The position numbers and the translations under genes were made by a program. A model generated the notes under the pieces. It saw only the letters and a program-made list of their open reading frames with translations. It was not told where the DNA came from and ran no database searches. A stretch of 64,000 nt of DNA from contig QPGO01000092.1 of the NCBI GenBank assembly GCA_008632985.1, positions 62,001 through 126,000 on the forward strand, in the 5' to 3' direction. Origin of the DNA: Psammoneis japonica. Its lineage: Eukaryota. Below, in pieces: positions 31,508 to 64,000 of this stretch. Every line of letters begins with the position of its first letter. The first letter of the stretch is position 1.

Positions 31508-31576
31508 TCACGTCATGCTCATGTCGACATCGCTACTGGCAAAGGACAAGTTATCATCCGACGATGCGGCTCGTTG

Positions 31577-31607
<31 letters not shown>

Positions 31608-34009
31608 TGGAGTTGTTGTCGACGGACGCTTTGTCTTGTCCTAGGCCGGTTGGGTGGTGGCGACACAAAGGACGGCTCCGGAGGAGTCGGCGATGATTCC
31701 GCAACGTCTGCCATTGTTTGGTCTTGAACCGACATGGACGACAAGGCTTCCTCCAAGGCGCGATTCAACATGTCCGAGCTGAATTGATCGTCCGGCTTTC
31801 GACTGAGGGCCTGGTGATACAACTCAATGGCGCCATCCAAATTGCCAGTCAAGTGTTTTGTGAATCCCAAAGCAGAATAAGTTGATGCGTTGCCCTGCAA
31901 GATATAGATGGAGAACGGTATGAGCGTTAGAGAAGTCAAATTATGAGTCAACGCCATGATCATTATCAATCCATTCAAACAATATACTGTACGTACTGGA
32001 CAAAGCGCCAAGCACTTTTCAAGACAATGCGTCGCTTCGGCAAAGTGCCGAGTCTTGCGATAGCATTGTCCTAGATTAAAGAGCGTCGGTTCCCAAAAGG
32101 CATCTTGAATCAAGTCGATACACTCGGCAGTCGTTTTGGCAAGGGCCACGTTGCCACGTTGTCCTTGTGGACCACGCGAAGAATTGCTTTCGACTAGAGT
32201 GCGGAGACACTTGTCAAAATATAGTATGGCGTCTGGGTATTCCTTTTTATTCCACGCCGCCACACCTAGCTCGTGAAAACACAACGGATCACCTCCACTC
32301 GATTCCAGCGCCGCCGTTAAAAAGTGGTTCGCCAACACCAAGTGATTGGTGCGCAAATACTCCATCCCCATGTACAACAAACTCGCGTGTTGTGCCGGTG
32401 AAAGTCGCTGAGCGGCGCGAAAACTCGCCAGAGCTTGATCCGATTCGTCGCAAGCGGCAAAGGCACAACCAAAGGCGATCCACGCATCCGACGATTTGGG
32501 ATCGAGACGTGTGGCACGACAAAAGTGTCGTTGTGCCACGTGATATCGACCACAGGCATAATAATACGCACCCACGGCAAACCAGGAGCGAGCCGACTTG
32601 GGGTTGGCTTCGACCCACTCGTGGGCAAGTCCAAACAAGAGCCGTTTCTTGTTCAAACCCACCAAGGTGGCCACGTGTACAAAGGAACAAGTTGGACAGA
32701 GCGGATCGACTTGAGCCAGCGCTTGACAATACTCGAGTGCCTCGTGTAAATTGTGTCGACGAAAACTTCGAATGGCGGCAAGACTCAACACTTCGGGCGA
32801 TTGATCCAATTTGTGCTCCGTCCACAACTTGTCAAAGGCCGAATCGACATCCATTGTCTCTTTCGTTTCTGTAGAAAAGTGTGGCTTGGCCGGTGGTTTG
32901 ACATCCCCGTTGTCATCGTCTTCGTCTTGCTTGTCTTGCCACATGCTTCCCAAAACATCCCCGTGATGTGGTGTCGCCACGTGTTCAATCGTAGAAGCGT
33001 CTTGTAATCCACCAAACAGACTCGTATTATTGTTACTGTTTGGTTCCTTGTTTTCCTTGGAGTGATCGTGTGGCAAATCCAATCTTGCTAAATAGACATG
33101 CAAGAGCCATTCCATACCGGGTTCCAACTTGAGTGTGGATAACAAATCGTGTGCTTCCACCGGCGTCACCACGGCACGTTCCAACATGCAATCCAGCGCT
33201 TCCACGCAGGTTGCATCAATGGCCAAGGCCCGTTTCCAATACAGAGCCGCACGAGTCGGATGACTCGTTTCGTCATAGGCACGTCCACGCCATAAACACA
33301 AGCGTGCGACGGGATGGATTCTAGCATCTGGTTGTTCCAGTGCTGGTACAGACGACACCAACGTCTTCCAACCACCCTCATCGTCATCGTCGAGGGGCTC
33401 CGTGGCTTGTTCCAATACCGCCAGACACTCGTCCCATTCTTGAATGGCCGCCAACGACTGTGCAGCTAGTAGAGTAGCTTCCAGATCCACCAGTAACAAT
33501 TCGGCTTTTTCCAAAAGAGACACACACCGCCGGTGTTCGCCATTCAACGCCAAGGCTTGTGCATACAACAGGGCATCACTCGGCAAGTGCGTTTTGCTGT
33601 AGAGAATGCTTCCATAAAACACCGCCATGTTGGGCGCCGGCGTGAGATTGGGACCACCCAGAGCGTCTTGGGCCAAGTGACGGAGTTTTGTCAAATTCAT
33701 GCCATCCAACAGCACAACAGCATCTTCCTGCTGTTGTTTGCGAGTACTACTAGTGTTCTTGGGCGGAGGAATGCCAGTTGCCAACACACCACCACCACCA
33801 CGTTCTTCAAAGAAGCGACGTCTGTTTTTCCCCGACGTTGGCGGAGATTGTCTCGTTGCTGCAGAAGTAAAAAAGGGAGACGTCAAGTCGGCTGCTTCGG
33901 CCGAGGTATCCGCCATGTTGTTGCTATTCATACTGCCCACCGACATGCGTGGACGGCTTCGACGACCCGTAAAGGGAGATCGACCGGATGGGCCTCCTGT
34001 TGACGACAT
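31508..34009 (-). CDS. CDC16: Anaphase-promoting complex subunit 6 (TPR protein)
   Basis: SWFAVGAYYY, AWIAFGCAFA..DESDQALASFRAA.RL, LYMGMEY, WEPTLFNLG..YRK, A..LYHQAL match APC6/Cut9. In-frame 102-bp intron at 31895-31996. PolyQ near the C-terminus. Confidence 0.9.
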
Positions 34010-34729
34010 TCTATATATAATACGTTTAGCGCGGATGGGTAGCTAAGCGAACAATCAACAAAAACTCAAAACACAACAACGACGACGGCACGTGATTGTT
34101 TCGTCGCATCATTTTTTGTGGAGCGTGTGTGCGAAAATGCAGTGCGGTACAAGGGCTCACGTAGATTATGGTATTGGTTGTACGTAAAATGTCGATAAAC
34201 GTCGTCCATCGCAGAAATTAGATCTCCGTCATTGGAGGTAAATCAATGATATATATGGTATTTTTCTTTGAATATAAATATATTTATAACTTTTATGTTT
34301 TCATGCCAAACTATTTGTTTCTGTATACTCAACATATTTTATTAACACTCGTGTCTGTGTCGCGTGTGTGTCCTCGATGTTGCTTGTGACAACCAACACC
34401 AGTTGTGGCATGGACAACAACTAACCGAAGAAGCATGTCAGCCATCAACGCCAATCCCAACAAGTCTAAAGTGGCTCATGTTGCAGCAGAAGTGCCTTCA
34501 GAGGACCCACCCACAGTGGAGGTGTTCAAAGCAAACAGCAGCAACGTGGAACTTCTTTCTTTGAAGCACTCGGCAAAGGCAGGGACATGCAGAAACGTCT
34601 GCTGCTGTGCCCTGCACATGCCAGTTTGTTCAGAAAGACTGTGTGTTGAATGAAATGCACACATGTCTTGTGCAGCATTGGGATGAGGCAGCAACACTGG
34701 TCACATCTAACCTTCAAGCACAAAGATGT

Positions 34730-35047
34730 TGTCAGCCTGTCTGCCGTGCGATGGACAGACTGGTGGGTCATTTGGCCACAAATGAATTGACGTGCTCGCG
34801 CTTGCACATGTTTGTGCAGACTGAGGTCTGGTTGTCAGTGGGTGCAAGGATTCATTGATTTGGGCCCCTGATGTGTGCACTGGACAGACTGTGCACGGAT
34901 CATGATGACCAGACCTTTTAAGAGGGCCAAGCAGATCCCTCTGAGATCTGTCTCTCACTCTCTTCTGCCAGCACTTGTGTTGTCACAGTCCCAGTGCTTG
35001 GGGAGTCTTTCACACCTCTGTCATCATTGACCTCAGGCATTCTGTCA
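34730..35047 (+). repeat. 5' LTR
   Basis: Aligns with 41804-41981 but has an extra 129 bp between two tggacagactg repeats (34752, 34881). Confidence 0.85.
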
Positions 35048-38000
35048 GGTTGTGGCCTTGTGTTGTGCCACAGAACACTGCACTGTGCTTTCTGTTTTGA
35101 CTCATTTGTTTTGTGTGAACCGATCAAGCAAGCCTGATCATCTGCTCCTGAAACAGTTTTTTCCTCGGCTTTCCTGGCATTTTTCATGATTGCAGAAACA
35201 TAAAATGTTTTCACCATGTCCAACCATGGTGGTGCCCAACCCTGCAAAAACCATCCCCACAGCCATCACAGAGATCTGTTGTGAGTTTCAAGCACGTGCA
35301 ACTCCACCTCATCTCCATGCGGCCCTGAATGTGATTTACGCGGACTCCACACTCAATCTGGATCTGTTCTTTGAAGACTCAGACCATGCTTGACCCAAGA
35401 AAAATGTCATGGACTCACTCCGTGACTGTCTTGTCAATCAAGCGTTTCTTCCACCTTGTGCGACAGATCCCACAGACACACAGTCTGTCAAGACGATTGT
35501 GGACCAAGCTCCCTTTTGAGTTGCAGACCCCAGTGGGTCTCATGCAATTTGTTTGATGCCCAAAGGACTGTTTTCCATGATCAAGTTGACTCTTTAGAAC
35601 CACAGACATTCTTTGTTCATTGTCATGTTGACGCAGCATGTCCATGTGGACCCCAACATGTTGTGGAACTGCAGAGACTGGAATGAGTTCTCTCTGACTC
35701 CATGCAAGCCAAAGACTCAACCCACACCCCCATCTTTGACTTCTGCTGGAACCACAACTGTTGGTGTGAATGACCCAGTTGCAACACTCAATGAGTGCTC
35801 CATGAGCCAAGCTCTGCCTTCGACTGCAGCTGCAAAAACATCAGGAGGTGCTGCTTCCCATGTTGCATCAATGCATCCATTCAACCCCAATGCTTTGTCC
35901 AAGGATGTTTGTGCACACTGCAATTGCAAGGAATGCAGCAACACCACCTTGAAAAGTTCCCTCACCCCTTGTGCTCATGGGTGCCATCACTGTGTCAATG
36001 CATCTGAGTGCATCATCCTCAATGATGGCATGCTTTTTATCATGAGCTTGACTCCCGACCAGAAAATGTTGTCCAGGGAACCTTCCTGCCACATGCCATG
36101 ATGACTCTCCCACAGGAATCCGTGCTTGGCATCAAAATTTCTAACATCACTCCTTTGATTCTGGGTGCTGCGTCCATCCATTGTGGTGCTTCACTGAGGA
36201 CCATGGTGGTGAGAAAGGCTTCACAATCAGCAATGATGAGGACAATGACTCACCTCAATGCGTGTGTGTTCATTGCAAGGAAGCCCAGAGCTCTGTCCAC
36301 AAGATCTTGTCCAAAGCGGATGTGTTCCCCAAGAATGGCAAGCATCATTGGATTGTTGCTTCCTGCTGCTGCAATGGACACAAGGCCCTCAAGCAGATCT
36401 CATTTGAGATTCATCTTGCCTTCAAAAATGAAGCTGCAGGACCAGTGGACTCCTGCCCCATGCAAGGCAATCTCTCATTGACTGACTGCCACATTGTCTT
36501 TAAGGATTTTCTGCATTTGAATGCTTGTGTGTTTGATGTGGACTCCACATCAGATGACCCACGTGAGATGACTGTCTTTGTCAAGAGAACACCAAGCACT
36601 CCAAGTTTTTATCCTGTGCCACACATGATGAGTGCAAGTCTCCAGCTTTGCTCAAGAAATGTGTGGATGCCCAGATTGTTGAAACACTTTCAGACTTCCT
36701 TTGTCAACCCAACAGTCCAGCTGTCAGCAACTGCACCAACGTTTGCAACCCATGCTGCAGGTGAGATTGCAGTCCAGATGACACCTGCAACACTGCCACC
36801 AATGCAAATGCATTGCATGCTTTGGATGCACCTCTCATTGAAGCCCCTTCCAAGGGTGCACCTGAAGATGCCAGCACCCCAAACATTGCCATCATTCCCA
36901 GTTGTGATGCCATTGACACTCTGTGTGATGAGCTGGCTGCTCTTGATGCACCCCCTGCAGATGAAGACCGTGTCCTCCATCATGCACATTCTGCCTCCGT
37001 CTGCAAACTCAAGACTGCTCCACAGGAAGCTTTCAAAAAACCCTGCACAGTTTGTTCAGATGATCATTTGTTCCATGACTGTCCAGTGTTGAATGGTGCT
37101 GAACATCTCAAGAGTTTCCACATTTGCTTTTGCCAATTCTTGAAATGAGAGGCCGCTGTGCGTGCTGCAACAATCCAAGGTGCTCATGGTTTGTTGCCAT
37201 CTGCCATCTGCCAAGAAACCTGTGGAACTCTGGTGCTGAGCCTCCAAATTTTCAATCAGGTCATCACAGCTGGTTTTGGATCTCCAATGCAGCCCATTTT
37301 CTGCTGGCCAAGACAAGACAAATGTCAGTGGGGTGACTGCAAAAGAGGGGCTGCCAGTCTTGTCACCTGCCACTGAACCACCTCTTTCTCCAACAACCAA
37401 TCTGGGCAATGACAGCACTCCAGTGTCATCCATGCCTCCAGATGTTGCCAAGCTGCTGGATGACAATCCCACTCCAGATTCTTTGGATCAGTGGAGGGTT
37501 GATTCTGCTCTGAATTCTTTGGATCAGGGGAGGAACAACCAAGACTCATCTGATCAATGTGAGCTCATTGACCTTGCATGTGATGACATGGCTTTTGAAG
37601 ACAGTTTTGCAGCAATCAACTCTGTTCATGTCACCCTGACTGCCCCTGCTCATGCATTTGAATCTGTGCCAACGGAACTCCATTGTGAACCACTCCAGGT
37701 CAATGCTGTCAATTTTGCTCCAAATGAACAATGTGCTCAGTTGGGTGCTGGTGCTGACATTGCCTGCACTGGTGATCGTGACCTCCTGCATCAACACCAG
37801 GAATTCACTCCAGATGACTCATGTCCTCTTGCTGTCAACCCAGCTCTTGGTCATGAAGTGGTGCCAGTTGGCTTTGGTTGCCTTCACACACCGGCAGAAA
37901 ACTCCCAAGGTTTTGTTGAGATTTGCGTGCATCATCACCCACACACTCAATCTGCCCTGGTTGATGAGCAATTGTCACCGTGCAAGAATGGTGCCCATCG

Positions 38001-41000
38001 CATGGACCACAATGTCAATTGCATCCTCAAGTTTCACAATTTAGGTGCCTGCAAGTTTGTTGCATTACATCGGTTTTGCAAGAGTCAGGATGTTGTCATT
38101 CATGGTCAGTTGATCAACGGCAAGTGCCACACTCACCCACTTGCACCTCCAACATCTCATGATGAACTTGATGCATTGATTGAGCACTTGAAGGCCACTG
38201 ATCCATCTTTTTCAGAAGAGTGCGGCTGAAGTGGTCTTGTTGCACATGATTGCAACATGTTGTGGACACCAGAACGATGCCTTGCATGAGGAACGCAAGT
38301 TGATTCCACGAGTTTGCCAGGACATTCCCTTTGAAGAACATGCCAAGAAGAACACTCCTGTTCAATCCCTCAAGACTGACATGGAACGTCTTTTGTGACA
38401 CCAATGACTTGGTCATCCCAGCAATCACTGCTTGTGTCATGTGCATCATGAACATGTTGACGGTGTCCCCAAGTTTGCTCACAGCACATCTCCTCTAGAT
38501 GCTTGTCCTGCCTGCATCCAAGCAAAGCAGACCAAGGAACCCGCTGGTCTGAACACTGTGTTGACTGCCACTCAACCCCATCAAGGTCCAACAGCGGACT
38601 TCTCTTTCTCCAGATTGTGCTCAAAGAACAAGGCACATGCCGCTGATTGTGCTGGATTGAGTGGCAAGACTTGTTGGATCACTGTCTGTGATCACCACGC
38701 CAAACAAGTTTGTGGTGCTGCTCATGTCTCTGAGGCCACTCCTCCAATTGGATTTTCCACTTTCTGGAGGAGCCCTTGCCAAGATGTCTGGATGAATGTG
38801 TCTTTCTGGATCAAGGTGAAGATTTGCACAATGGTCCAGCAGCTCGGCAACTCTTTGAGGATGACTTTCACTGTGTGATTCATCCCATCATGGGAAAAGA
38901 TGCTTCAAACCAGAGTGGCCCAGTTGAGCAGAGTCATTTGACTGTTGCAAGTGCCACTTGGGTGATGCTGACAGGTGCAATCTGCTGATCAAGTTCTGGC
39001 CCTGTGCTTTTCAAGATTGTCCTCAAATCAAGAATGCTGTGCCATCCAAAGGACAAACTGCTGCTCCAATTGCCCTTGCCACTGGTCAGAGAGATGATTT
39101 TTTCTGCTTTCTGAACATTTGGTTGCCATGTCTGGGTCCATGTCTTGAATCACCGACTGGCAAAATTCAAGACTGACTCTTGCAAGGGAATTTTCTTGGA
39201 TTGTTCTTCTGGATGCCACAAAGAACATTTTTGTGGCACATGACCCTGTGATGCCCGGGTCAAGCTTGCCAAGCACATGCACTTCAACGAAGGAATGAAT
39301 GACTTGGATTGTGATTCCATCCCTCCCCATGTGGACCATTTGGGGTGCACCCAAGCTGGTGATCCTGTCCCTGCTGAGACCAAGGAAATGACTGCAGATG
39401 AGTTTCACTTCACTGGCAATCCTTTTGCCCAGACCATTGCATGGTCATGCACAATGAAAGGACCACATTTGGATTCCAACTTTGGGCTGTCCTTGACTGC
39501 AGATGAGTTGTGCCAATGTGTCTGTGTCTCGGATGTCTGACATCAGTTCTCCTTCTGCTCATCTCTTCTCTTTGTTGAAGGTGATGTGCAACAAGACATT
39601 GGGCACTTGTGTTGTCTTGATTGATGGTCACCCGGGAGACTCATTTTGAAATTGAATTTGTGCCAGAACAATGTCTTGACTCTAAAGCTTTGCAACATCC
39701 CCTGTGGTGGAACACAATGTTTTCTTGCCCACTCCCAACCCTGATGACAAAGATGTCCTGGAGATCATGAAGGCTGACACACATGCAACTGCTGTGATGC
39801 ATCATCTGGGTGTCAATTTTTTGGAAGTTGATGAGGTTTGGGAACCTCCCCCTTTTCACATTGATTGTGACAATGGCATCATGAATGTCAATGTGATGTC
39901 TTCTCATGCCATCATCCCGGAGGAGCAAGCTCAATGTGCCTTTGCTTGGCACCATCTCAAGAAGTCACCTGCATGGCCTGAGTGGCATGCAGGCAAGTTC
40001 AACAGGCAGCTGGACCAGTTTCATGAACTTGGCATGTTTGGTGCCCCCATCAAACAACCCAAGGATGCCTTTGTCCTCTGTCCTCATTGGCAACATGACC
40101 TCAAGCATGATGGCATGCAATGTTCCTGCCAGTGTTGTGATGGATCACTGTGTGTTGCATCTGTCCTCCACAGACTGCAGCACCAAACGCACTCCTCCTG
40201 TGTTGAGAAACCAATTCGGTGCATGTTTTTTGCACTTGCAGCTGCCATGAGCTGTTGAGTCCATGGCGGTGATGCCTGAGATGTGCACACACACTCTCCT
40301 GGGCCCTCTCATCCTGTCTGTGTTGCAAGTGATGAAGCATGCACAACATGGCACAAGTCTTGCTTTGGCGTCAATCTGCATTGGAGGACCATGGTTTTGC
40401 TGATGCGACATGCTCTTCAAGGACACCCAGAAGTTGGTGTGCTCTGGGAGAAACACATCAATGACATCCTTTTTGATGTGACCCTGGTGTTCCACAATGC
40501 AATGCATGACAAGTGCACTCATTCAGCTGCCTTTGATGGACACAAGATCTTGTTGCTCCAACAAGTTGACGATTTCTCTGTTGCTTGTCCTGAAGAATCC
40601 ATTGTGACCATGATCTGTGACAAGATTGGCAAGGCTCTCCAACTTCCTTCCAAAGACACCCCACACCTTTCAAGTGCCTGAGACTGATTGTCGAATTCAA
40701 TGGTGTTGACATTCACCAATGTGACAACTCTGTTGGCATTGCCATTCACGGGGCTGCATTGAATGGGCACGCATCTTGCATGGTTGGGCCAAGCCGACTG
40801 CTGATGAACCTGCATTGAACTGCATGGTGACTGTGATCCTGGTCAATTGTGTTCGTGATTTGCACACTGACATTGGCCCTGCTAAAGGGACACCAGAACA
40901 TGCCAAGCTTGAAGAGGCAGCTGGTTTTGGATGCTGCACTCTCCTTGGTGAATTGTTGTGTGCATGTGTTGTTTGCAGATTGGACATCAGACATGCTGTC

Positions 41001-41803
41001 ACTGCCTTGTTGTCCAAGTTCTCTTTGTGTCCTTCCATGGTGCACTGCAATGCATTGAAGGGTGTTTGCAAGTGCCTCCACCAGACCAAGCATTGGGAAC
41101 TGAGCTGCAGGAAACTCAAGCATGATCTGAGTTTGCCTCCATGTCCTTTTGAGCGCTTGACTCCTGACCCCACCCTGCCATCATTTCTCCCACTTCTGAG
41201 AGTGATTGTCAACTCCTTGCCTTCATGGATGCTGCCTGTGGAAATGATCTTTGCAACCATCAGTCCACAACAGGGCATGCTTGCATGTTGGCTGGTGCTG
41301 CCACATCTTTCCAATGCAAGACCCAATCAGTGACTGCTGTGGGTTCTGTGGAAGTGGAGTTTTGTGCCACCAGCACTGCTGCCAATCACACTCTGCCTTT
41401 TGTTGACAAAAAATTGGCAATCAAGATGACCAACCATTCTGTCCCCACCAAGAGTTTGCACCACATTGACACTCAGTTCTTTGCAATCCAAGATTGGAAG
41501 GAAGCGGGCAAGATTGTCACACCAAGACACATGCCTGGCATTGTCAACCCCAGTGATGACCTTGCCAAGGCTCCAGGATGGGCATTTCATGCCCGCTGTG
41601 CTCAATGCATGATGGGACACTGCCGTTGATTTTTCTTTTTTGTGGTGGCCTCCCTGCTGCAGATTGCTTCCTTGTTTGTCATGCATGTTGCGCATTGGGC
41701 TTGGACATTTTTTGTGTGCTGTGGTCTCTTCTCTCCTGCATCATCCCTGTTCTGTGGATTGATCTGCATTGTCACACACTGGACATTGCAGATCAGGGGA
41801 GGG

Positions 41804-41981
41804 TGTCAGTGTGTCTGTCATGCAATGGACAGATTGTGCGCAGATGATGACCAGACCTTTTCAGACAGCCAAGCAGATCTCTCTGAGATCCACCTCTTCT
41901 GCCAGTGCTTGTGTTGTCACAGTCCCAGTGCTTGGGGAGTCTTTCATGCCTCTGTCGTCATTGACCTTTGGCATTCTGTCA
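41804..41981 (+). repeat. 3' LTR
   Basis: Follows the PPT directly. Starts tgtcag and ends ctgtca. Confidence 0.9.
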
Positions 41982-42939
41982 AATGTGGGAAGGCAGCAGT
42001 GCTGCGCACACCAAAGTGGCAGCTTGAGAAGATCCCCCAGCAGTGGAAGAAGAAGGGCAGGCCAGCAACATCATTGCTGAACACCTTGCCACACATTTGG
42101 CTGTCATGCAGTAAAAAGATGACAGTCTCAAAAACAGGACTGGATGTCTTGCTTGCCTCAAGCAAAACATTGTGATGCTGGGTGACACCCAGCTCTGTTT
42201 TTTGCACATGTGGGGGTGGCAACCTCTTGGCACGGTCTCAGCTTCCTCAGAAGGCTCTGCTGGTTCTTTTTGAAGACATGTTGTCCAGCAACATTGACAT
42301 CCTGATGGCCAGCTCTCATCACCAGAGCTTGGTGCTGGTCAAAGAAAATGTGTTGGGGGTGTGCTTCAACTCAACAAAACAAAGACAACAAGACCAAACA
42401 TGAGGATTGCAGGCAGGCTGAGCTGAAGCACTTGGCATCATCCCATCTGTCTGAGCTCAAACACTGGAGCCCTCACAGTCATGACAGATCTCTGCATGAT
42501 GACAGGTGGCATTTTTTGATTGAAGAAAGACAAGCTGTGTCACAACACTTGGCATCATCTCATCTGAGCTCAAACACTGGAGCCCTTGCAGCTGTGATGA
42601 GCGGATCTGTGGGGTTGGTCCATTTCTGGACCATGAGAGCAAAAGCACTGCACAGTGTGGAAAGCATGCATGCACAGTGACTGCACAACAACCAGGCTTG
42701 GCTGGGGCACTCTGCTCTGACTTGCAACTAGCCTGATTTTCCAATGACCACCATTGCCCTGATTCTTTTGATGCTGGCTGCTCTGCAGAGCTTCAACAAA
42801 TGCTTGTGCATCTTTGTTGTCAAACAAGGAGCACATTTTTACATTCTTTTTCTGTTTGCCATTCAACACAACAAAGGGTCTTGCCTTTCAAAATGAGAGC
42901 ACAGCCCTGCTGTTTTGCTGTCAGCGCACCTGGTGCATG

Positions 42940-43230
42940 GTGGCACACTGTGGCCAGACTGTCTGTTGGGTGCAGGTCAGACACCACCTTTTTAGATGGC
43001 TGAGCAGTTTCCTCTGGGATCTGCCTCTCACTCTGTTTCTTGCAAGCAGCACACCACATGTCACTGCTGTTGCTGGTTTGTGTTGCAGGGAGATCCATGT
43101 CACATTTGTTGACTCAGCTGCCATTGCTCTGGTGGGTTGTGGCCCAGTGCTGCACTGCATGCTTTCTGTGTTGTGAGCCCATTTTGACTCATTTGGCTTG
43201 CAATTTTGTGATCTGACCAAGCCTGCCCCA
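42940..43230 (+). mobile_element. Second, truncated copia: LTR remnant, PBS and leader
   Basis: ggttgtggcccag at 43135-43147. Following sequence (ctgcactg..tgctttctg...ttttgactcattt...caagcctg) resembles the leader at 35070-35140. Upstream part is homologous to 61775-61880. Confidence 0.65.
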
Positions 43231-46200
43231 AGTTTTCACTCCCATTGGGATGTTTTTTCACAAAACCAAGACATTTTTTGGGCTGCAGGACAGCCCTGGT
43301 GGCCCTCCATGAGCTGTGAGAACAACTTTCTGCGCACCTCCACTGTGGTGACTTGCAAGAGAGAAAAGAGCACCATTGGTGCCTTGTCAAGATCTAAGCT
43401 GTTCTTTTCAGGCACACCCTCATCCACCAAAGGCCCAAATTGTGCCTGAGCAGCATTTGCAGTGCCTCAACTGTTCTTGTCTGGACCCATTTTTCTCAAC
43501 AAATCAAGTCAATCCAAGGATCATGCTCCTGAGCTGTCATTGCAGGGGTGCTGTGTTCTCCAAAAAACCCTCACCTTGCCAGAAATGAGAGATGCCCCTC
43601 TGGTGTCTCATTTGTCATGTCACTTTTCAAGAAAGTCCCTCTCAAGTTAAGAACTCCAAGGATGGGGCAACAGCTCTGCATCTTGTCTGTCATGCAGATG
43701 CTGGGACACAAGACTCATCTTGCTCTCAAGGCTTCTTGCAACCAAAAACAGCTGCTTTGCTGGTCAGTGTGGTGGCAAACATGTGCTTCAACCACCCCCT
43801 GGCATAAAACACAGATGTGTGGATCTGCTTTTTCTGTCAAAGCACACATCCTCACCTCCAGCAGCTCTGCTTGCCATTCTGGCTTGGCCTGTCAGTGTCA
43901 CAAATCTTGTCATGCCCTGAAGCACAACTCTGCAGCATCCAAGACACCCCCAGTGGCTCTGGCTCTTCAACCACTGAGACACCATCAATGTCTTCAACTT
44001 CCAAGAAGTTTCTTCTGCTCAACCTGCGTGCACTGCTGCCCTCAATTCACAAATGTTTTGACCACAGTGTTGTGGATGAGGCAACAATTCTTCTGAGTTT
44101 GTTTGCCCCATTTGATGGCGGCAACATCATTTGGATGAGACAGACCACATCGCACACTCAGCTTGCCAGTGGACCCCTTTTTGCAACAGGTCCAATGCTG
44201 GGCCACCCCATCTGCAAAATGCCCAGTGTGTTGCACCATGTGCTCCTTCTGCTCCTCTGTTCTGACAGCCTCTTTGATGCCTCCTTCTGCTGTCCCTCAT
44301 GCTTTTGCCCAGGCTCTTTAATTCCTTGCTTGGTTTGAAAGCTTTGTGCTCCACAAACCAAGCTCATGTTGTGATCATTTGCCACACAACACTTGCCAGT
44401 GGTGATGCCTCAATTTCCAGCAGCAGTGTGCAGCTGGTTGGCTGATGGCTGCTGCTCACCCTCTTTGGCATTTCCTTCAAACCATGGCGGCAGATGGGGT
44501 TTTGCTGTTGACAATGACCCTTGAGCTTGCAGCAACTTGTTGGGCTTTGGGCAAAGTTGAGCAAAAATTCAAACATGGCATTTGTCAAAATGTCATTTTC
44601 CCTGCACAAATGTCAACTTGATGTCTGCAGAGCAAGAGATGCCACAGTTTGTGCTCATGTTGGCACACAGCAACCTCTGATGACATCAGCAATGGAGGCA
44701 TGCTTTCATCCCAGGTGAGAAATGAACACATGGAGAGGTTGGGCATTGTGCCCACTCTTTTTGTTCCATCACTGTGCATTTTGTGTGAGCAAATCTGTGA
44801 CAGATTTTCCCCCAATTTTGTGTGGCTTTTTCCCCAGATCTGGCTGCTTTGAAGTGTCAGCTGTTGCTCTCATTGCCCAGAGGGCATGGACAACAAAAGA
44901 AAAGTCTTCATTTTGGGGCAACATTTTGGCAAGAAAATGGTGGGAAGCTGTGCACAATGACTGCTTTTGCTGCAGCTTGGAGCCACTGTTTGTCTGTTTC
45001 TTTCACCACATCTTTTCACAGCCAATGCCCACACTCTTCATGGCATAAAGAGCTCAGCACCCACACCCAAAAAAGTGGTGCTCTAGCCAGCTCCATCATT
45101 TTTCATGTGAGCAAAATTGGGGGGAGGTTGACTTTGCATGTGTGCTTGTTCTTTGTGAAGTCAACTGTCTCAAAGATTGGCAGATTTGCAAGCCTGTGTG
45201 GGAGCCTTGTCCGGCAAATTGGCAGAGGCAACATCAACAAAACAAGCCAATGTTGACAAAATTTCAGCTCTAGACTGACACATCAAGTTGCAACTTGTTG
45301 AAACAAAAGAGGTGGAGCAAAGCAGCTCTGTGGCACACAGATGTTGCCAGCATTGTTGCCCCACTTTGCCACATTGTTGGATGCATTGTTCTTGCACCCA
45401 GGCTTTTCATCCATTGTGTGCACTCAAAGCTGGTCTTTTGTCCATGCCAAATGCTCCAGCATGTGTGTGTGTGTGTGCTTGTGAAACCTGACATCAAAGC
45501 AAAGGCACCATCCATGGTGACTTAAGGTGCAGGCATGACAGAGTGCAAAAAACATGCCAGTGTGCCACAAAGACAGGTGTGTTGTTGCTTCCATCTGACA
45601 TCAAGAGTTGACTTCACAGCTGCAGGAAGAGAAATGGAGGCATCAACAAAATGCTGCCAGCTGAAAAGCTTGCCCCCCCCCGGCAGCAAAAATCAAGCTC
45701 CAAAAACACTTTCACATTGAGCACAGCCTTGCTTGCCTGTTGCTGCTTTTCTTTCTTGGTGCCCTCATCACAACTCATGTGGTTCTTGGATCATGAGGCA
45801 GCAAACTTCTCTTTGCTTTGGAGCTCACTCAATTTTCTTGCATGGGCTTGGTGTCAAGTGCAAAAGACACATGGAGGCTGAGTCACATGGAAAACCTTGC
45901 AACTTGTGTCCAAAATGGGCAAAAAAAGTCTGGAGGCAGCAAGGAGCACTCTCTCAACTCTCAAAAAGCTGTGCAAAAGACACCACACATGGCTTGGCTG
46001 CCATGGAAAATCTGAAGAGTGCTGCTTTTGAAGATGGCTGGCACACTTTGCCATGTTGCAACCCTGAATGTTGTGGCAAATGCGCGACAAAGCTGAGAAC
46101 ATCAAAATGTCAAAAATGACAAAAATGCTGGCATGTGTTGCTGCAAGCTGCACTTTCTTGTTGCTGGGTGCAAGTGCTTGCCTCGTTTTTGAAACAAAAA

Positions 46201-46929
46201 TTTCTCTAAGAGCAGAATCAAATGGGCCATTTTAGATTGTTCTCATCATGCCATGGTGAGCTGCTGATGAGCTGGTCTCCAGCTGTGCTTGTGCGAGTCT
46301 CTGGCAGCTGGTTGTTTGTGTGTTTGCAGCTTCACAAGGCTGAATTTGAGCCCTTTGGCCTGTTGCCACTGCCTGTTTTTTGTCAACACAGCATGTCAAA
46401 ATGTGCCTGTTTGTCAACATGTGGTTTGCCATTGTGCTTTCAAGGTGGGTTCAATTCTGTGCCTTGATGAAGTGCAGCACCTCCAGCCAGCTCTGCTGGC
46501 ACATGCAGGTGGCCATGGATGTGCAACTGAACAACAGGACAGACAGGCCTGTGCAGGCCCACTGTTGGCCTCTGCAATCAGCCCTTGTTCAATGTGCATC
46601 AGATTGGTTGCTGGCTGGCCTCCCATTTCCAGCACAATTGTGCATCAGCTGCAGAGACTTCAAGTTTTTGCATGCTGAATTTTGTGGGGCAGAGCTTTTC
46701 AAAATTTTTGATTTTTCTGAACACTGCAACATGCAACAACACTCAAACAACAAACATTGATGATGCTGTCAATGGGACAACATCAAAGCCACTTTGTCCC
46801 ACTTGTGAACTTGCAGTGCAATGGCACCTGACACCAAAGCTGCAGAGCCAACACAAAAAGGAAGGCAAAGAAGGCTTGCATTTGCAACTGGGGCAACAAA
46901 TGCAATGTGACACATTCCACATGCTTTTC

Positions 46930-49760
46930 ATCCAACAATCATGACATGACCCACCTTGTGAAAATCAGGCAAGGAGACAAGAATGGTCCACTGCAACGTT
47001 GTGTTGAAAACCACTTCAACCTGAGCAAAGATTGCAGGGAAGAGCACAAAGTTTTTGCTCATCACTGCCCCCCCCCCCCAGATCATGCAATGCATCTGTG
47101 ATGAAGATGGCAAGGTGGCACACAAGTTCTGGGCAGAGATTGACAAAGCAGAAGCTGAATCACATGACGGCTCAATGACTGAAGATTGCAGCCACTCTGA
47201 AAAGAATCCAAGCATGTTTGCACAAACACCAACCTGCCAGCATGAAAAAAAAGCCAAGCACACTGAGTTTGAGGACCTTGATGAGGACTTTCAAAAGAAC
47301 ATCTGGGCTGCACTCAGCCAAATGGCAGACATGAGCAAAGCCAAAACAGCAAAAGCAAAGGAAGCCACAGTGGCAGCCATGATGGCACCAGATGGATTGC
47401 CCTTGAATGAGCGTGAGAGCAAGGAATTTTCCTCTTTCATTGCAAAGGAGCTCAAAAACAAGGCTCTGGTGCTGCGAGAGGATGAGACCTCTGTTTCATT
47501 TTGACCAAGTTCCTCAAGTCTGCTTTGACCCTGTGCAGTTGCAGCAAAACTGGATTTGAAGAGCACTGCTTTTTGCATCTCTGCACATCATGCCATCAGT
47601 GAGCACAATGAAAAAGCTGCAATCCAAAATGAAGGCAAATGAAGGGTTCTTCCCTCCTTTGCATGGATGGTTCTTTGATGAAGAGGTCAACTGTGACAAG
47701 TGGAATGAGGGTCGTGATGTTGTTGGTGTGACAATGGCGGATGTGATGAAGCTTAAAGCTGGCCTTGTCATTTGGGTCAGCAATGACAAAGGAGTTGGCA
47801 TGACAAGCAAAACCTGACTCTCAATGAAAGGAATGGTGACAGAACTGCTGGAAGATGAAGCTGGAGAAAAAATGACATGAAATGTGAAGAGAAGCATGAG
47901 CCTGCAACAGGATCCACAACAGCAAATTCTTTTTGGACAATGGATCCCTCATGGGGGATGAGCAGCCAGAGCAAATGATGCACCAAGTCATCTTGTCTCA
48001 TGAACTTGCAGGTGTTAAAATGAGTGTCTTTGTCTCAAATGCAGGCAGGAGCAACTTTGGATTTTACAGGCTGCTTTGTGGCAGGAAAAGAACCCGGCTG
48101 TAGGATCTTAAGTTGGATGATTGCACAGTCAGCTTTGTGAACCCCGCAGATCTGACCAGGCAAGTGCACTTGTTCCCATGCTCTGCTCACAGGATCAAGA
48201 GCATGAGGAACAACCTGTGCCAAAGCAACTGGACCACAGGCACCCACACATTCAAATTTGATGGCGCTCCATTCAGCTGGGAACCTGTTCATGAGTCCTG
48301 CATTTGGGACAAGGAGAGAGGAGCAATGTCAGTGGGAGAGGGTGGCATGACTGAAGGGGCAGCAGATCTGGACAAATGGGAGTTGATGAGGGTTGGACCA
48401 GCAAAGAAGCAGCTGTTTGCCCCCAACACCACATTTGAACAAGCCTGTGCTCTTGCAACAAGCATTGGAAAAGAGAAGGAATGTCTGGTCAAGAAGAGTG
48501 CCACCATGTCCCACAATCTTTCTGCCATTGGGAAGTGCAGAAAGACAGAAGCCTTCTTCAATCAAAATGTTGATGGCAAGAAAGACAGGAGGAGGGTGCA
48601 AGCTTGAGTGAATGTGCTCAAGTGCTGCATCACCATTGGTTCTCTGAAACATTCATGAGCGCAAAGAGAAAACTCACAAAGGAAAACCTGGAGGAAACAA
48701 AGAGACAATCAGGAGCTCATTGTTTTTCAAAGAGTGGGTGGACCAACATGAAAAGTTAAAAAGGCAGAGGAATGAAGGAGATTGGGTGAAAAATTCAATG
48801 ACAAACACAACTCGACAAGCGATTTCTCTCCAAAGTGACATGGAACAATCTTTGACTCACCGCACTTGGGTTCTTAAGCTGTGCTTTGACTCACCACATT
48901 TGGGCTCTTAAGCTGTGCAGAGGCAGTGCTGTCACTGGAAGATGGGCCAAGGGAAGTCATGTTTCTGCACTCCAACCAGAGTGTGCTGGAGGCATCATTT
49001 TCTCAGATGCAATTAACGGGCTGGGACAAACTGCACATGCACATTTCTGGACTCGACACCGTCAATGCGGTCCACACTCTCATTGCCATGGAAAAGAATG
49101 GAACGCGTGCTAAAGACCAAGTGGGAGACATCAAGTGCGCTGACCCAGTGGAAGCTCTGACGCTTGCTGAGATGCCGAGCAATGTGCCACAACAGCTGAT
49201 GCCTGGATCTCTTCTTCTGCAATTGCCCCCCCCCCCCCATGGCTGCTGCTCTCTTTCCTCATCACTTCCAGTGCAAGGAAAATGCTTCCACCAAACTGAA
49301 AGAGCTGGTGGAGGCAAAAGCCTTGACTCCAAATGGATGCGATGGTCTGTTGAAGAATGATGATGAGTTTCATCAGCTCACAGGGGTCAGTGTGCACACT
49401 GTGAACAAAAGCTGGTTCAAGGCTGTTTGGACAATGACAAGTGCAGACAGGCTCACCTTCAATGTGTCATGTCAACACATCACATCATGGGTTCTTCTGC
49501 TGCCAAACTCAACGAGGGAGGCCAGGGCAAGCATTGCCCAGTTGGTCTTGGCTCTTTCTCAGCAGCTGCTGGATTGGGTGAGGAACTCAATGACTGACTT
49601 CTTGGCATCAAAACAAAGCACACAGAAGAAAGACTGTGGCGATGCATGGCTCAAGAAGGATGATGCGAATGGCGAGGTCATTCGATTCTTTGGTTGGGCG
49701 ATGTTTTCTCTTTGGAAGAAGCTTTCACGATGGCAAAAAATGGCAAAAGAGAATCACATG
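46930..49760 (+). pseudogene. Degenerate P-element/THAP9-like DNA transposase relic
   Basis: VHLFPCSAHRIKSMRNNL...FDGAPFSWEPV...ELMRVGPAK recalls the P-superfamily D/C-xx-H-x-x-K-xx-RNN, SW and KMxV motifs. Many stops and frameshifts. Confidence 0.5.
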
Positions 49761-50056
49761 AGTGACTGTCATTCACGAGGAGAACAAAGTCGCAACATGG
49801 GTTGGCTCACCTTGGTTTCCAAGCCTTGTCCTGTTGTTTGTTTATGTTCATGCGTGCGGCATTCGGTGCGGTGGCTTTTCTTTTCGAAATTTCATCATCA
49901 TCTGCAGCTGGCGGATTATTTTCCTGTGTCCGTTGGATCGTCGACAGGGCCAAGCCGGCTGTACATCATGCACTACAACAACCATGTGTCATCATTGCTG
50001 GTATTTACAGTAGTTATTTGAACAACAGAAACCAAGAGCGTGGAGTCGACTAGGGA

Positions 50057-51889
50057 CTACCCCCTTCGTTTCGTCCCACAAAAATCAATATTTCTTCGGA
50101 ATTGACTGACATGTTCCAGCGGAACATTCGAGGCATCTTCACCTCCCGCGTATCCCAAGTTGTCGTAGTGAGACAGAGTCGTGGCTAGAATGGCCACAAC
50201 CGTATCCATACCCAACTGTCGCCCAGGACATTTGTGTTGGCCCTTGCCAAAAAACGAAAATTTACGAAAAAGTACTTCATCAAAGTGACCATCCTCGTCG
50301 AGCCAGACGGTTGGGTCAAAGGTCGATGCTGGAGACTTTGCCCACTCTTCGCGTCCAACCTTGGTGGAAGTTTCTAAATTGTTGAAATCCGTCAACAAGA
50401 CAAAGCTTCCCTTCTTGAGAGTTTTGCCCTGTAGATCAAAATCTCGCATGGCACTCAGTGGCATGGCAAATTCGTAGCACCGCAAGGCTTCCGCCACGGT
50501 CGCTCTTACGAGATGGCACTTCTCCAGCTGATCTGCGGTGGTAATGACTCGGTTGGGACCACCCAACACGGCATCGACTTCCTTGCGGAGTTGGGGTTGC
50601 AACGCCTGTCGATCCGGATGCGACAACAACCACAATACACTTTCCGCAATGACTTCAATCGATTCGGCTCCGGTATAAATAAACGACGATGAGAATTGAA
50701 GAGCATCCGTTTTGGCAATTTTGCCATCTTGGAGGGAATGTTGAATCTGGCTCATGGGACATCTGGAAGGAATATCCTGGGATGCAAGGGCCTTGTCCAA
50801 ACCGTCCAAGAATTGTTTTGTAGAATCCAATGCTCCCGCGAGTCGCCATGGACGAAACAACGTCGTCAAGATTCCATTCGCACCAAAGTACTTCGTGATT
50901 TCGAATCCTTGGTGCTGGAGTTGTTGGGCCATTTGGTCACACACGACTGGATCTTTGGCCTGCGAGACTCCAAAAATAAATTCTCGATTGACCAAACCGG
51001 CAATGGGTTTGGAGATGCAATATCGGAAGTGGAGATTTGGGGTCTCGGCGTCGCTAGTTCCAGCCACGGCTTGCTTCATGATGTCTTGTACCTTCGGAGC
51101 AATTCTTTCCAAAAGTTCGCGTGACGGCTGTTTGTGGACGGCGGTATCCATCAGTGCTTTGCGTCCCTCCAAAACTACATGAGGATTGTTGCTTCCCATG
51201 CCCACATTGCGTGGCAATCCCAACAAAACTGTTGGAAGTTTTGTATTCACAAATGTGGACTTGACGTTTTGGGCGTTTCCTGTGACAATTGTGGCAGGAC
51301 CAATGGAAAAGACGTCGCCATAGTCTTGTTTCAAATCTTTTAGAAGGGTCAAAAAGCCTTTGGTTTGAATCGTCCAAAGAAGTTTGGGCATGTCTTGGAG
51401 GGAGGGCCCCTCAAACGTTTTGACTGTCTCGAATCCAAGTGCCAGTGTCCCGAGAACGCCGGCTGCTGTGGCCGCAAGCCAGGATGGATCCATTTCCGTA
51501 CTAGTGCTTGAGGAGACTGCCATCGCTGTGAGTACGGCAGTAACAGCGGCGGCCGATCTTGTAGAATGCTTCTTCTGGAACTCCACGACAAAGTTGTTCG
51601 CTTTGTGAAAGGGACACTCCTTGGAGGTACTTGTAGCAGCAGCAGGAGTAGACCCTTGTTCTGTGCAGGCGGTACTCGTCATCCTCGAAGAGGAGACGCT
51701 TGATGATTCAGGAAGCATGCTAGAGTCGTCACAAGAAGTGTGCTGAAGGAATGAGGACCGTTTGTGCTGCTGATCGTTGCTCTTTCCAGTAGAGTCACCG
51801 TTCTTCTTGTGGACCCCAAAGCCGTGGCTCCGTTGTGGGGCAAGGAGGAGACAAAGAAGAATCGATGTGGCACTGTATGGAAGTTTCAT
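50057..51889 (-). CDS. Cytochrome P450, intronless, with a putative bipartite targeting presequence
   Basis: Heme motif FGKGQHKCPG, ExxR (EALR), FDPTVW. N-terminal MKLPYSATSILLCLLLAPQRSHG-F followed by a Ser/Thr-rich stretch. Confidence 0.92.
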   Translation of the reverse strand: MKLPYSATSILLCLLLAPQRSHGFGVHKKNGDSTGKSNDQQHKRSSFLQHTSCDDSSMLPESSSVSSSRMTSTACTEQGSTPAAATSTSKECPFHKANNFVVEFQKKHSTRSAAAVTAVLTAMAVSSSTSTEMDPSWLAATAAGVLGTLALGFETVKTFEGPSLQDMPKLLWTIQTKGFLTLLKDLKQDYGDVFSIGPATIVTGNAQNVKSTFVNTKLPTVLLGLPRNVGMGSNNPHVVLEGRKALMDTAVHKQPSRELLERIAPKVQDIMKQAVAGTSDAETPNLHFRYCISKPIAGLVNREFIFGVSQAKDPVVCDQMAQQLQHQGFEITKYFGANGILTTLFRPWRLAGALDSTKQFLDGLDKALASQDIPSRCPMSQIQHSLQDGKIAKTDALQFSSSFIYTGAESIEVIAESVLWLLSHPDRQALQPQLRKEVDAVLGGPNRVITTADQLEKCHLVRATVAEALRCYEFAMPLSAMRDFDLQGKTLKKGSFVLLTDFNNLETSTKVGREEWAKSPASTFDPTVWLDEDGHFDEVLFRKFSFFGKGQHKCPGRQLGMDTVVAILATTLSHYDNLGYAGGEDASNVPLEHVSQFRRNIDFCGTKRRG

Positions 51890-54800
51890 ATTTTTTGCTT
51901 TGTAGTAGGTGTAAATTGTGAGACAGCATTCAATCGAGTACCGTATGATGGTTCAGAGAAAGAGATAAAACCGGTTTATGTAGCTTACCTGTACGGTAGG
52001 TTCCTCCCAAGCCGGGAGTGGGTTAGTCGCAAAGAGCAGGTTGGCATTTCGGAGCGTGAGAAATATGGAAATAGTGGAAGGTCGCGCAACAGAAAGGTGA
52101 AGGCCTCTCTCCTCTCTGTACATACCGGTAGTCTACCTTCACCTTTCTGTGAAGTGATAATTTGGTGTGAAGTGATCACGTAGAATTGTACGTATTTTTT
52201 CTAGTACTGAAATTCTGATCAGAACGCCACCAACTTATGTTCTGATTTTTATTAATTAATGTTTATAATCATTTGCATACAAATCGCCACAGTAAAGTTT
52301 GCCGTCGAGTTCCAGATGAGAGAAAAATCGGCATATGTCCGGTCACGTAGGTAGCTCCGAGTCTGAGGAGAAAACGCCATACGTTCAATTCGCACGTACG
52401 ATGGACAGACGTTTTACGACATTATGCTGCTGCGACAAAAACAAACCAACCATGATGCGGCAATGACCGATGTTTGATCTTGCCACCAAACCTTTTCCTG
52501 CCAAAAATGTCAACGCATGACATCCAAATTTTGCTGTGACAAGTGTGTCAATTGCAAGAGACGTGAGAGAAAACCCAAAAATGAACAACAAAAGCTCCTT
52601 CCTGCAGCTGTGCCGCTGCCCAGACTGCACATTTTCACAACTTGCATGGCAACAGCCAATGTTCTGTTTTTGCTGCCAAAATTGCTGATGATCAGCATGC
52701 TGTGCTGTTTCTCTTTGGCAAGTGTGCCAGTGAAAAGAGAGGCACAGCAGGAAAAAACCCAAGCAAGCAGGGCAAATGCAAAGAGGCCCTTTGTGCAGTT
52801 TTGCCACAAGACTCAGGCTCTCAGCTCTCACAGCTTGTGCACTTCAATTTAAGTTTGCACTTGACAGATTGAAGGCTGACTTTCAGCAATCAGGTGTCAG
52901 GTTCTGCTGTCACACTGTGCCTGTGAGCAGCAGTGCCAAGGTTGCTTGGCAATCCAGCAGCCAGCTCTCTGTGAAAAATGGCTGCAAAAGGAAAGGATCT
53001 GCCTGCTGCAACACAAGAGACAAGCAATCAAGAGTGCATTTTCCTGTGGTTTGGTGTCAAAGTAAATCTGCTTGTTTGTGGTGCTGTGCTGGCAAGACCA
53101 GCTGCGAGGCACAGCCCAGCCGCCACCAGCACAGCGGGTGCTGGCCTCCTCTCATGATGTTGGCATTGGGCCACATCATGCAGCTGTGCCGCTGCAGTCA
53201 AATGGCATTTCTGCCAGCTCTGCATGAAAAAATGATTGCAAAAGGAAAGGAGCCATCTGCGGTGCAAGAAACAAACAGCCGCCAAGCTCCCCACGGTGGT
53301 GGGCTGCTTGAAGTGCAGCAGCAGCTGCGCTCTGTGCTGGCCATCCAACAGAGATGAGTGGACCACAATGTTGGCTGCAAGATGAAAGGACTGTGTTGGT
53401 CACAACTGGTGCCAAACAAGTGCAGGAAATTTTCCTTTCATCCGAGAAAATTTGGGGGCTGCCAAGAGAGGAGCCCCCCATGACCCAAAACCCCACTCAG
53501 ACGTGTTCCAGCTGCACGTGAACCAAATCGTGCACAAAAACGACATTTGCACGATTTTTGTGCGGCCCCCAACTTGCGATCAAACTTTCACCACCAAAAG
53601 TGTGGATTCATCCAAGTGCAAATGTTTTGCAACACTGACAAGACTCGTGTGAGTGCTGCAGCGTCATTGTCATTGTGCCATCTGTGTTTTTCATTGTGTT
53701 AAAAGACTCGCAACACAACGGATGATTTTCGTCGAAAACATTGCCGTCACTTGGATGTCACCCAAATGTGTCTTTCTACGATGCCACTTGGTGGGTTTTC
53801 TACCTGCAAAGAAATCTCAGCACAAATCTGCTGACGTGCAATCAGCGTTGAGTCTGCTGAGGAAGTTTGTGATGTGTGTCCCATGAGGACTTGAGTGCCC
53901 CTCAAAAAACTGTTTGACTTTTTCTGCACCCACGCGGTTTCGCGTGATTGCCCCATTTAAACAAAATTTTCAATTGCGAAGAATGCCAACACAAACAACA
54001 AAACTTTTCCATTCAAACAAATGCAAACAAATGTGTGCTGTTTCGACCGTGACAGTTTTGTCCAATGGCATTGCAAGCCCTGGGACAGACTTTGGACCTG
54101 CAGTTTGGACAATTGCAAAGAGATCCGTGCCACACACACAACCGGATGACACATCTGAATGGACCAGGGCAACAGGGTGCAAAAAAGTGACGGACAGATG
54201 CATGCATGCTGGGGACGCATGCAGACACCATGGAAGAGTGACTTTTGGCAACAATTTCCAAAATCTTCTGTCCTGTTCAAAGTTTTGCATTGTGCATGGG
54301 TTTTGTCAGCAGGGCTGTGCACCCTGCTTCACAAGTGTCTAAACTGAATGTCTGTGGGTCAAAATGTGTCAAGCCGAGCCATTCTTCTGAAGCTGCTGAC
54401 AAAGAGGAAAGGCAACATTTTCCACTCAAACAACATGACACCAGGAAATGTGTGACCAAACATGTGAACAATGATGAAATGACAACCACACTTGAGTCAA
54501 TTAGAGAAAACACCGGGACAAAAAATTTTGTCCCGCGGGTGCAGAAAAAGTTAAATGTTCACACTCTAGAAGCCTGCAGAAGTCAATCTGTCCAAGCATT
54601 TCATGTGAAAATGCTGCATGCACTAAAAGATGCACAAATTGCACTCAAAATCGATTGTTGTTTTGTGCGTCACCTGGGACTGGAACACGCCCTCATGCTC
54701 ACATCTTGATTTCCCCCTTGTTGGCTTGTCAAATGAAGAAAACAAAGAGGCTTTCCTCTTTTGTTTTGTTGCACAATGTGCGCCAGATTTGCCACACCAA

Positions 54801-55851: not shown

Positions 55852-55915
55852 CTGCCCGACTGCCCAACTGCCCGACCCCCCGACTGCCCGACTGCCCAAC
55901 TGCCCGACTGCCGGA
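55852..55915 (+). repeat. 8-bp minisatellite (ctgcccga/ctgcccaa), about 8 copies
   Basis: Directly visible. Two units carry CG->CA. Confidence 0.85.
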
Positions 55916-56282
55916 CCAACACGAAAAAGTCTGCAATCACCAACCACTGAGTGGTCAATGAAATCTTTCCCTCCGCCGTCTCATCTCTCATCTCTCTTCT
56001 GCTCAACTTCTCACTGAGAAAAAAAAAACGCAAAAACCATCATCCCGACTCGTCGACCATGGCGCTCCAGTTCTGAACCCATCGTCCACACTGTTGAGCT
56101 GTTGATGCACCACTCGATTTGCAAGAGTTGACATGACAAGAGACTGTGCGCAGCATGTGCGCAATGCATTGTCGCACCATTTTTTTCTGTCATTGTCGAC
56201 ATGCATCCCAGCAGTGATTTTGCATGAGGTTTGAATTTTGTGATGATCCGCGCGCAACAATCAGCTCGACACAAATTTCAAA

Positions 56283-63860: not shown

Positions 63861-64000
63861 GCAGCAATCATGCACAGCTCATTCTGATGTGGATGATTGC
63901 CGTTGCAATGTGAGGAGATGCTCTTGCCAATGCTTGTGATCCTTCAACTGCTGCCACAAACAATGAAAACAACCAAAATTGGGGTTGTGCATGTTTTCCA

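Follow-up and report, generated by a model that had tools for sequence, protein, structure and literature searches.

Introduction

Repeat-induced point mutation (RIP) of ascomycetes is a repeat-directed process that introduces dinucleotide-specific transitions on both DNA strands, kills transposons and leaves mutated domains with sharp edges. RIP turns CpA/TpG into TpA and depends on homology sensing by RID/DIM-2 in the premeiotic stage. For repeat hypermutation in the direction A:T>G:C we found one printed precedent, a 2026 preprint in which Mettrop et al. report that viral DNA integrated in Bigelowiella natans undergoes TpA-only hypermutation, suggest that this extends to transposons, and propose a deaminase with an ADAT2-like candidate (10.64898/2026.01.13.699255). 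The de novo transitions, 231 in number, were likewise confined to TpA, and the process is ongoing; when mutations were accumulated in culture, its rate lay near 1e-7 and differed between lines (10.64898/2026.01.13.699255). The main text of that preprint makes no mention of context, trinucleotide, CpG or diatom, and its Fig. 2B and Table S2 may hold flanking bases (10.64898/2026.01.13.699255). A targeted full-text literature search, with subscription journals mostly outside its coverage, found no description of TpA loss in diatoms. Here we analyse a 64,000-nucleotide stretch of the Psammoneis japonica assembly (contig QPGO01000092.1, positions 62,001 to 126,000; hereafter the window), in which two transposon-derived blocks, one of them carrying a dead copia retrotransposon, have lost nearly all TA dinucleotides while the flanking genes have kept theirs.

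Compared with RIP, the window process shares repeat targeting, dinucleotide specificity, action on both strands and sharp edges, but its direction is opposite. Instead of C>T at CpA with an excess of TpA, the window shows a TpA rho of 0.04 and a CpA/TpG rho of 1.85, and the process is not RIP. In its workings it resembles the B. natans process and a RIP in reverse. As far as the preprint describes it, the B. natans process agrees with that of the window in changing A:T to G:C at TpA only, in affecting either strand of foreign or repeat DNA and in leaving clusters poor in TpA and rich in TpG/CpA. The window differs in that the victim is long terminal repeat (LTR) and other transposon DNA of a diatom, in that CpG decay is overlaid, and in that a rule for the +1 base (TAY, where Y is a pyrimidine) could be measured; its TA rho of 0.04 is near saturation, whereas the viral region of B. 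natans has 0.45 and the cluster cut-off in the preprint is <=0.43.

TA loss and the flank rule of the surviving sites

The features on which the argument rests are the following.

34345..49850, no strand: TA-erased block B1, with 41 TA left (29 YTAR, 12 mixed, 0 RTAY, where R is a purine) and a CG rho of 0.14
52440..64000, no strand: second TA-erased block B2, with 41 TA and the same flank rule as B1
34833..35047, + strand: 5' LTR of the copia element (TG...CA), 85% identical to the 3' LTR over 172 nt
35048-35057: motif directly after the 5' LTR resembling a primer-binding site (PBS), a putative PBS
37360..41620, + strand: dead copia pol with frameshifts and stops, matching intact relatives at 35-46% identity
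41804..41981, + strand: 3' LTR with a purine-rich tract upstream

Homologue layout and motifs point to the order integrase, reverse transcriptase (RT), RNase H within pol. A target-site duplication is not recognisable for the copia element in B1.

Genes fill 1-34344 and 49851-52400, where TA rho is ~0.5 (0.55 in 1-34344) and CG rho ~1. In B1 and B2, TA rho drops to 0.04-0.05, CA/TG rho reaches 1.7-1.85, and CG rho is 0.14 (B1) and 0.38 (B2). B1 has sharp edges: TA sites lie densely as far as 34343, the following ones are at 34422 and 34467, and high density returns from 49917. The 41 TA that remain in the 15,506 nt of B1 (rho 0.04) comprise TTAA (12), CTAA/TTAG (13), ATAA/TTAT (6), GTAA/TTAC (5), CTAG (4) and GTAG (1), with GTAC, ATAC, GTAT, ATAT, ATAG, CTAT and CTAC all at zero. 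By flank class, the 29 YTAR, 12 mixed and 0 RTAY sites of B1 (n=41) contrast with 236, 703 and 418 among the 1357 sites of unmutated DNA, and B2 repeats the pattern with 23, 17 and 1 (n=41). In the genic background TAA/TTA is the rarest trinucleotide, so the bias of the survivors runs opposite to it. CG survival in B1 shows no comparable flank contrast (0.07-0.30).

A first-pass annotation of this DNA had quoted nine surviving 7-mers, all of which are present in the B1 list, and had read them as the mark of an enzyme-like preference for context, symmetric between the strands, and not of compositional drift, proposing a tally of the NTAN tetramers in which equal depletion would speak against that reading. 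The tally bears the reading out: both an unmutated-DNA baseline (chi2 113) and a mononucleotide baseline (chi2 63) lead to rejection of uniform loss over the 10 strand-symmetric NTAN classes, neither value being matched in any of 200,000 multinomial draws. The same annotation held that TA with neither a 5' T nor a 3' A was essentially gone. This stands for GTAC, ATAC, GTAT and ATAT and fails for the class as a whole, to which 5 of the 41 survivors (4 CTAG, 1 GTAG) belong.

Pooling B1 and B2 (82 TA against 996 expected) gives survival of 0.44 for TTAA, 0.30 for CTAA/TTAG, 0.18 for CTAG, 0.09 for GTAA, 0.08 for ATAA, 0.05 for CTAC, 0.01 for GTAC and 0 for ATAG, ATAC and ATAT. These values are described well by an additive model in which the 3' neighbour of the A on each strand determines how fast that A is lost (A 0.33, G 0.89, C 2.16, T 2.77; deviance 10.7 on 6 degrees of freedom), compared with a deviance of 128 on 9 degrees of freedom without context. 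The Akaike information criterion (AIC) is -252 for four rates, -243 for R vs Y, -207 for A vs B (any base but A), -192 for the V-TA-B target (V, any base but T) proposed in the first-pass annotation, and -140 without context. The A-vs-B model was dropped for its poor fit. V-TA-B fits poorly because CTAG is V-TA-B yet is among the better survivors, and the rule is T-A-Y instead. The survivors are YTAR mainly because a TA escapes mainly if both strands read TAR. TA is palindromic, so survivors by themselves cannot separate an effect of the base after A from one of the base before T on the same strand.

Products of the change in pol

Relatives of the copia pol were found by a HMMER search, and 118 of the 150 were used to define 534 conserved columns, 32 with <2% Tyr being left out. 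None of the 26 conserved Tyr is kept in the window; 11 have become Cys (TGY), 9 His (CAY) and 6 other residues. Other residues are largely intact at conserved columns (Cys 9/10, His 23/26, Phe 22/24, Trp 10/13, Gln 12/12), except that Arg is kept at 5 of 38, in line with the prediction from CpG decay. The near-equal replacement of Tyr by Cys and His means that TA became TG about as often as CA, and hence that both DNA strands were changed. A simulation that applies only TA>TG/CA and CG>TG/CA to lightly converted relatives reproduces the dinucleotides of the copia element, with simulated and observed values per kb of 72.3 and 71.8 for AA, 117.8 and 117.5 for CA, and 1.6 and 1.8 for TA.

ADAR- or ADAT-type editing of the retrotransposon RNA, fixed via reverse transcription, comes to mind for such changes, as the element analysed in most detail is a retroelement and enzymes of this type typically prefer a 5' U. 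It predicts A>G in the sense strand only, however, and is contradicted by the two products, found in pol and again in the related family described below (143 TG, 97 CA), where the fitted strand bias is 0.75-0.91 with context modelled. Moreover, whole multi-element blocks are hit, and such editors prefer a purine at +1 where the changes seen here prefer a pyrimidine. We regard RNA editing as scarcely credible.

The survivors might also be newly made TA (CAR>TAR), or their bias might come from the choice of baseline. The ancestral sequence is missing for most of B1, the TA at 34919 in the 5' LTR does look newly made (by transversion), and a purine at +2 is enriched among the YTAR survivors of both blocks (77/104 oriented sites vs 221/472), an enrichment that the related family does not reproduce. 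Both baselines agree, though; Gln is fully kept and no conserved Trp reads TAG; one TTAG site is common to two related LTR copies; and the flank rule, read directly from polarised changes of the family, contradicts this explanation, which we consider very improbable.

Polarity in a related copia family

The window element's own relatives have ~56-67% DNA identity to it, too distant for polarising individual sites, and polarity was therefore measured in a different copia family. This family comprises 80 metagenome loci from other samples, 66 of them unique, of which 61 were aligned to locus L002 at 77-91%; from element type and GC content we infer that the hosts are diatoms. TA conversion per copy ranges from 0.11 to 0.83, a spread compatible with on/off exposure, and reaches 0.89 in locus L056 with other changes left out. 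Transversions at TA stay low across the copies. The polarity set consists of 13 copies (conversion >=0.38, other divergence <0.12) and 92 of 198 TA sites, those kept by 30 lightly converted copies.

Among the 567 cases of this set, 327 were kept as TA, 143 had become TG and 97 CA. A>G depends on the 3' base (A 9/114, G 39/383, C 125/393, T 67/244), while grouping by the base before T gives 0.19-0.33 without a purine excess. The two explanations part most clearly at YTAY, which gave 89 TG and 33 CA, and RTAR, which gave 6 TG and 15 CA (Fisher p 2e-4); L056 alone shows the same (YTAY 20 TG, 5 CA; RTAR 2 TG, 4 CA). The log-likelihood is -485.6 for the 3' model, -516.7 for the 5' model and -523.5 for none. 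Fitted A>G rates for 3' A:G:C:T are 1:1.1:5.0:4.2, the site-bootstrap ratio of 3' Y to 3' R is 3.1 (2.2-4.9), and in a joint model the rate is halved by a 5' C. At TAY sites of the family, the remaining positions between -4 and +4 had no strong effect. TACG changed in 85/278 (0.31), TACA in 93/282 (0.33), TACC in 62/220 (0.28) and TACT in 51/185 (0.28), with TATN at 0.23-0.44, the window itself being saturated. The signature is thus T[A>G]Y or, equivalently, R[T>C]A, with direct polarity in the family and indirect polarity in the window.

The change is also specific to TpA. In the family, A>G after T rises from 0.086 to 0.323. The corresponding values are 0.046 and 0.069 after A, 0.050 and 0.070 after C, and 0.033 and 0.039 after G, a rise that tracks general divergence only. 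The restriction of transitions to TpA reported for B. natans is therefore found here in the Tyr replacements, in the simulation and in these rates (0.04-0.07 outside TpA), and its both-strand, repeat-confined character in the TG and CA products and the normal flanking genes. L056 has a CG conversion of 0.22, compared with 0.28 in lightly converted copies, despite its TA conversion of 0.89, so TA loss needs no extra CpG decay. Positions 1-2301 of L056, with a TA rho of 0.08 and a CG rho of 0.96, represent a clean TA-only converted copy.

These data bear on patch repair by an error-prone polymerase (Pol eta or iota type) set off by T:G mismatches at methylated CpG, on the model of the A:T phase of somatic hypermutation. 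TA and CG are lost in the same window blocks, and among the family copies the two conversions show a weak correlation (rho 0.29, p 0.02), as such repair would suggest. The Pol eta motif WA (W, A or T), however, covers AA as well as TA and predicts AA loss, whereas AA is not depleted in the window and in the family the excess of A>G after A equals that after C. The comparison with Pol eta contexts suggested in the first-pass annotation thus speaks against this polymerase. L056 shed its TA without extra CG loss, TA transversions are low, and strict TpA specificity was already seen in de novo mutations. We judge the polymerase explanation improbable.

Taken together, the window and the family show a DNA-level, both-strand, repeat-confined process of TpA transitions with a +1 pyrimidine preference, which spares AA, lacks strand clustering and is partly independent of CpG decay.

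Comparison with candidate enzymes

E. coli TadA requires a UACG motif in a loop (PMC13170351, as far as consulted), and the first-pass annotation had pointed to this substrate as fitting, without proving, a deaminase. T at -1 and C at +1 do agree with it; the family shows TAT about equal to TAC, no advantage of TACG and no effect of G at +2. TadA-derived editors come closer, as they edit more with a 3' C and less with a 3' A (PMC8989541, in the part consulted), and their trend (5' T best, 3' C up, 3' A down) agrees qualitatively with ours. Fungal Tad2-Tad3(-Ame1) mRNA editing, the single eukaryotic ADAT system compared, has U at -1, as here, and A/G at +1, and ADAR has G at +1 (PMC11156358, in part). 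An ADAT2/3- or ADAR-like pattern of +1 purine on the sense strand differs from the +1 pyrimidine and both strands observed, and the strand-coordinated clusters of a kataegis-like burst were not seen, with 280 of 566 neighbouring events on the same strand and 290 expected (15 copies, 151 sites).

The same signature could come from the thymine. A TET/JBP-type thymine hydroxylase may mark R-T-A in silenced repeats with 5-hydroxymethyluracil (5hmU) or 5-formyluracil (5fU), and pairing with G or misrepair would give T>C; R[T>C]A is identical in sequence to T[A>G]Y. Thymine oxidation suits dispersed, both-strand, unclustered events on double-stranded DNA across whole domains. Against it, 5hmU pairs mostly with A, and T>C before C, read as A>G after G in the family, is not raised. 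In dinoflagellates, 5hmU made by TET/JBP is repeat-enriched with a reported preference for the T in TA and TC, whereas TC is spared here; it serves there as a silencing mark, and the sections of that study consulted mention no diatoms and report no T>C hypermutation (PMC11572971). We rate thymine oxidation as unlikely, though well ahead of the polymerase.

Two other origins were considered and dropped: ultraviolet TA photoproducts, the products here being transitions, and CG>TA double hits, CG>TA being rare in the related family (0-3 per copy).

Weighing the adenine deaminase reading

We favour a repeat-directed genome-defence mutator that would act on the chromosomal DNA of transposon-derived domains. 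It would change TpA to TpG on either strand (CpA on the opposite one), site by site and over many rounds or generations, until TA is nearly exhausted. A 5' T would be required and a 3' C or T would speed the change ~4-5-fold over a 3' A or G, so that TA survives mainly where both strands read TAR, leaving YTAR. The chemistry may be deamination of adenine to inosine by a deaminase of the TadA/ADAT fold at silent chromatin, and the role is presumably defence. A deaminase is ranked first because the B. natans preprint proposes one and because TadA editors share the trend of C up and A down; as a whole, this reading seems to us to have an even chance of being right.

Several points weigh against it. 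The deaminase is a hypothetical enzyme. TACG is not favoured, TadA editors gain 25-52% from a 5' T (PMC13170351, PMC8989541, each in part) where the requirement here is near-absolute, and fungal Tad2-Tad3-Ame1 acts on RNA with a +1 purine opposite to TAY (PMC11156358, in part). The lack of strand coordination is unlike the burst of a processive single-strand deaminase, although many superimposed rounds could hide strand clusters. TA conversion in the family correlates, besides its weak correlation with CG conversion, with other divergence (rho 0.58), and the rates of TAG and TAA are unequal in the window (0.89 vs 0.33) yet alike in the family (1.1 vs 1). Derived states are shared between copies mostly near a rough chance estimate, with some pairs above it, which makes common descent a limited but real caveat, and the hosts of the family are only presumed to be diatoms. 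Polarity in the window itself is less firm. Tyr codons preceded by a pyrimidine became Cys in 5 cases and His in 4, and a larger set of homologues raised these counts to 8 and 5; the excess of Cys is in the predicted direction but not significant, and the test is weak, ~80% Cys being predicted. The product skew D3 (TGY over TGR) is 0.18 in B1, 0.31 in B2 and 0.095 +/- 0.05 in copia, where it agrees with simulated 3' polarity (0.105) and not with 5' polarity (-0.10), and excludes absence of polarity (0.00) by only ~2 standard errors. It also depends on the proxy ancestor, with simulated ranges of 0.09-0.30 (3'), -0.01 to 0.14 (none) and -0.11 to -0.02 (5').

The rest of the window and further copies

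The remaining features are a further LTR and the two host genes that served as controls.

42951..43227, + strand: related LTR remnant with a PBS-like motif, 63% identical to 34881-35134
31508..34009, - strand: CDC16/APC6 host gene, unmutated, control and lineage marker
50057..51889, - strand: cytochrome P450 gene, unmutated, control, separating B1 and B2

The closest named relatives of CDC16 are those of the diatoms Seminavis robusta, Mayamaea and Fistulifera. A window protein with several HA domains resembles clusters in which Bacillariophyta is the commonest phylum (score 0.84), which is a lead only. Part of the LTR remnant (42975-43075) is 83% identical to 61775-61877 in B2.

The TA-poor zone extends ~490 nt upstream of the 5' LTR (34345-34832), where CG is partly retained and which may reflect either spreading or another repeat; its onset at 34345 is abrupt, after an AT-rich stretch 5' of CDC16. 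At 52440-59700 in B2, TA is 3-5/kb and CG 27-32/kb (about half eroded), against 9/kb CG in 59701-64000; low TA with half of the CG retained, unlike B1, indicates that the TA and CG processes differ in extent or age. Within it, 56300-59400 is a long degenerate coding-like stretch almost without Tyr in the + frames and without a Pfam match, possibly a dead DNA transposon, and 55843-55922 is an 8-nt tandem repeat, CCCG-rich, that has kept its CG. At 66-2781 and 3395-3906, tandem gene duplicates (81% over 1121 nt) and a 75-nt coding repeat (88-97% identity) have normal or near-normal TA, so duplication alone is not the trigger of the mutator. The unmutated region also holds an open reading frame (ORF) of 1387 aa at 9304-13467 without a Pfam match.

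Of 16 ORF pieces taken from B1 and B2, none passed the Pfam cut-off, one giving a sub-threshold match to a domain of unknown function, and a word-indexed protein search with a degenerate RT piece returned no match. Short-read contigs of 1-2.4 kb match B1 with 0-1 differences, from a run that may be the source sample. Other B1-matching records of the same run differ mostly by transitions (A>G at 297 places, T>C 331, C>T 325, G>A 265), with 57-82 places per transversion type. The sequencing run X2 covers the flanking genes and has zero depth over 34164-49435, which says nothing on silencing.

Elsewhere, flanks of copia loci in the related family resemble the window, with a TA rho of 0-0.15 and a CG rho of 0.08-0.33 at L024 4001-6000, L034 3001-3500 and L064 1501-2000. 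Twelve of the 150 RT matches lack Tyr altogether, mostly with raised Cys or His (P0022, P0024, P0041, P0049, P0066, P0068, P0087, P0093, P0101, P0113, P0136 and P0137); seven were traced to ENA, JGI and Logan. These are probably TA-erased copies in other genomes.

Significance

The polarised trinucleotide signature provides a direct test for enzyme candidates, which should prefer T-A-Y, spare AA and ignore the +2 base; the same three properties count against plain ADAT2/3 or Pol eta. A second copia family, drawn from other samples, follows the same rule, which suggests that more than one genome is subject to the process. Diatoms, and perhaps chlorarachniophytes, may share a 'reverse RIP' defence in which a chromatin-guided T[A>G]Y enzyme acts on double-stranded transposon DNA without need of CpG decay, be it an adenine deaminase that naturally acts on nuclear DNA or a mutagenic thymine oxidase, with a specificity unlike that of TadA, ADAT2/3 or ADAR; we hold this proposal to be slightly short of evenly balanced. 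If true, a natural DNA adenine deaminase would be of interest to the base-editing field. In diatoms, such a mutator would shape the composition of repeats and mask old transposons from annotation, as the ORF pieces below the Pfam cut-off illustrate.

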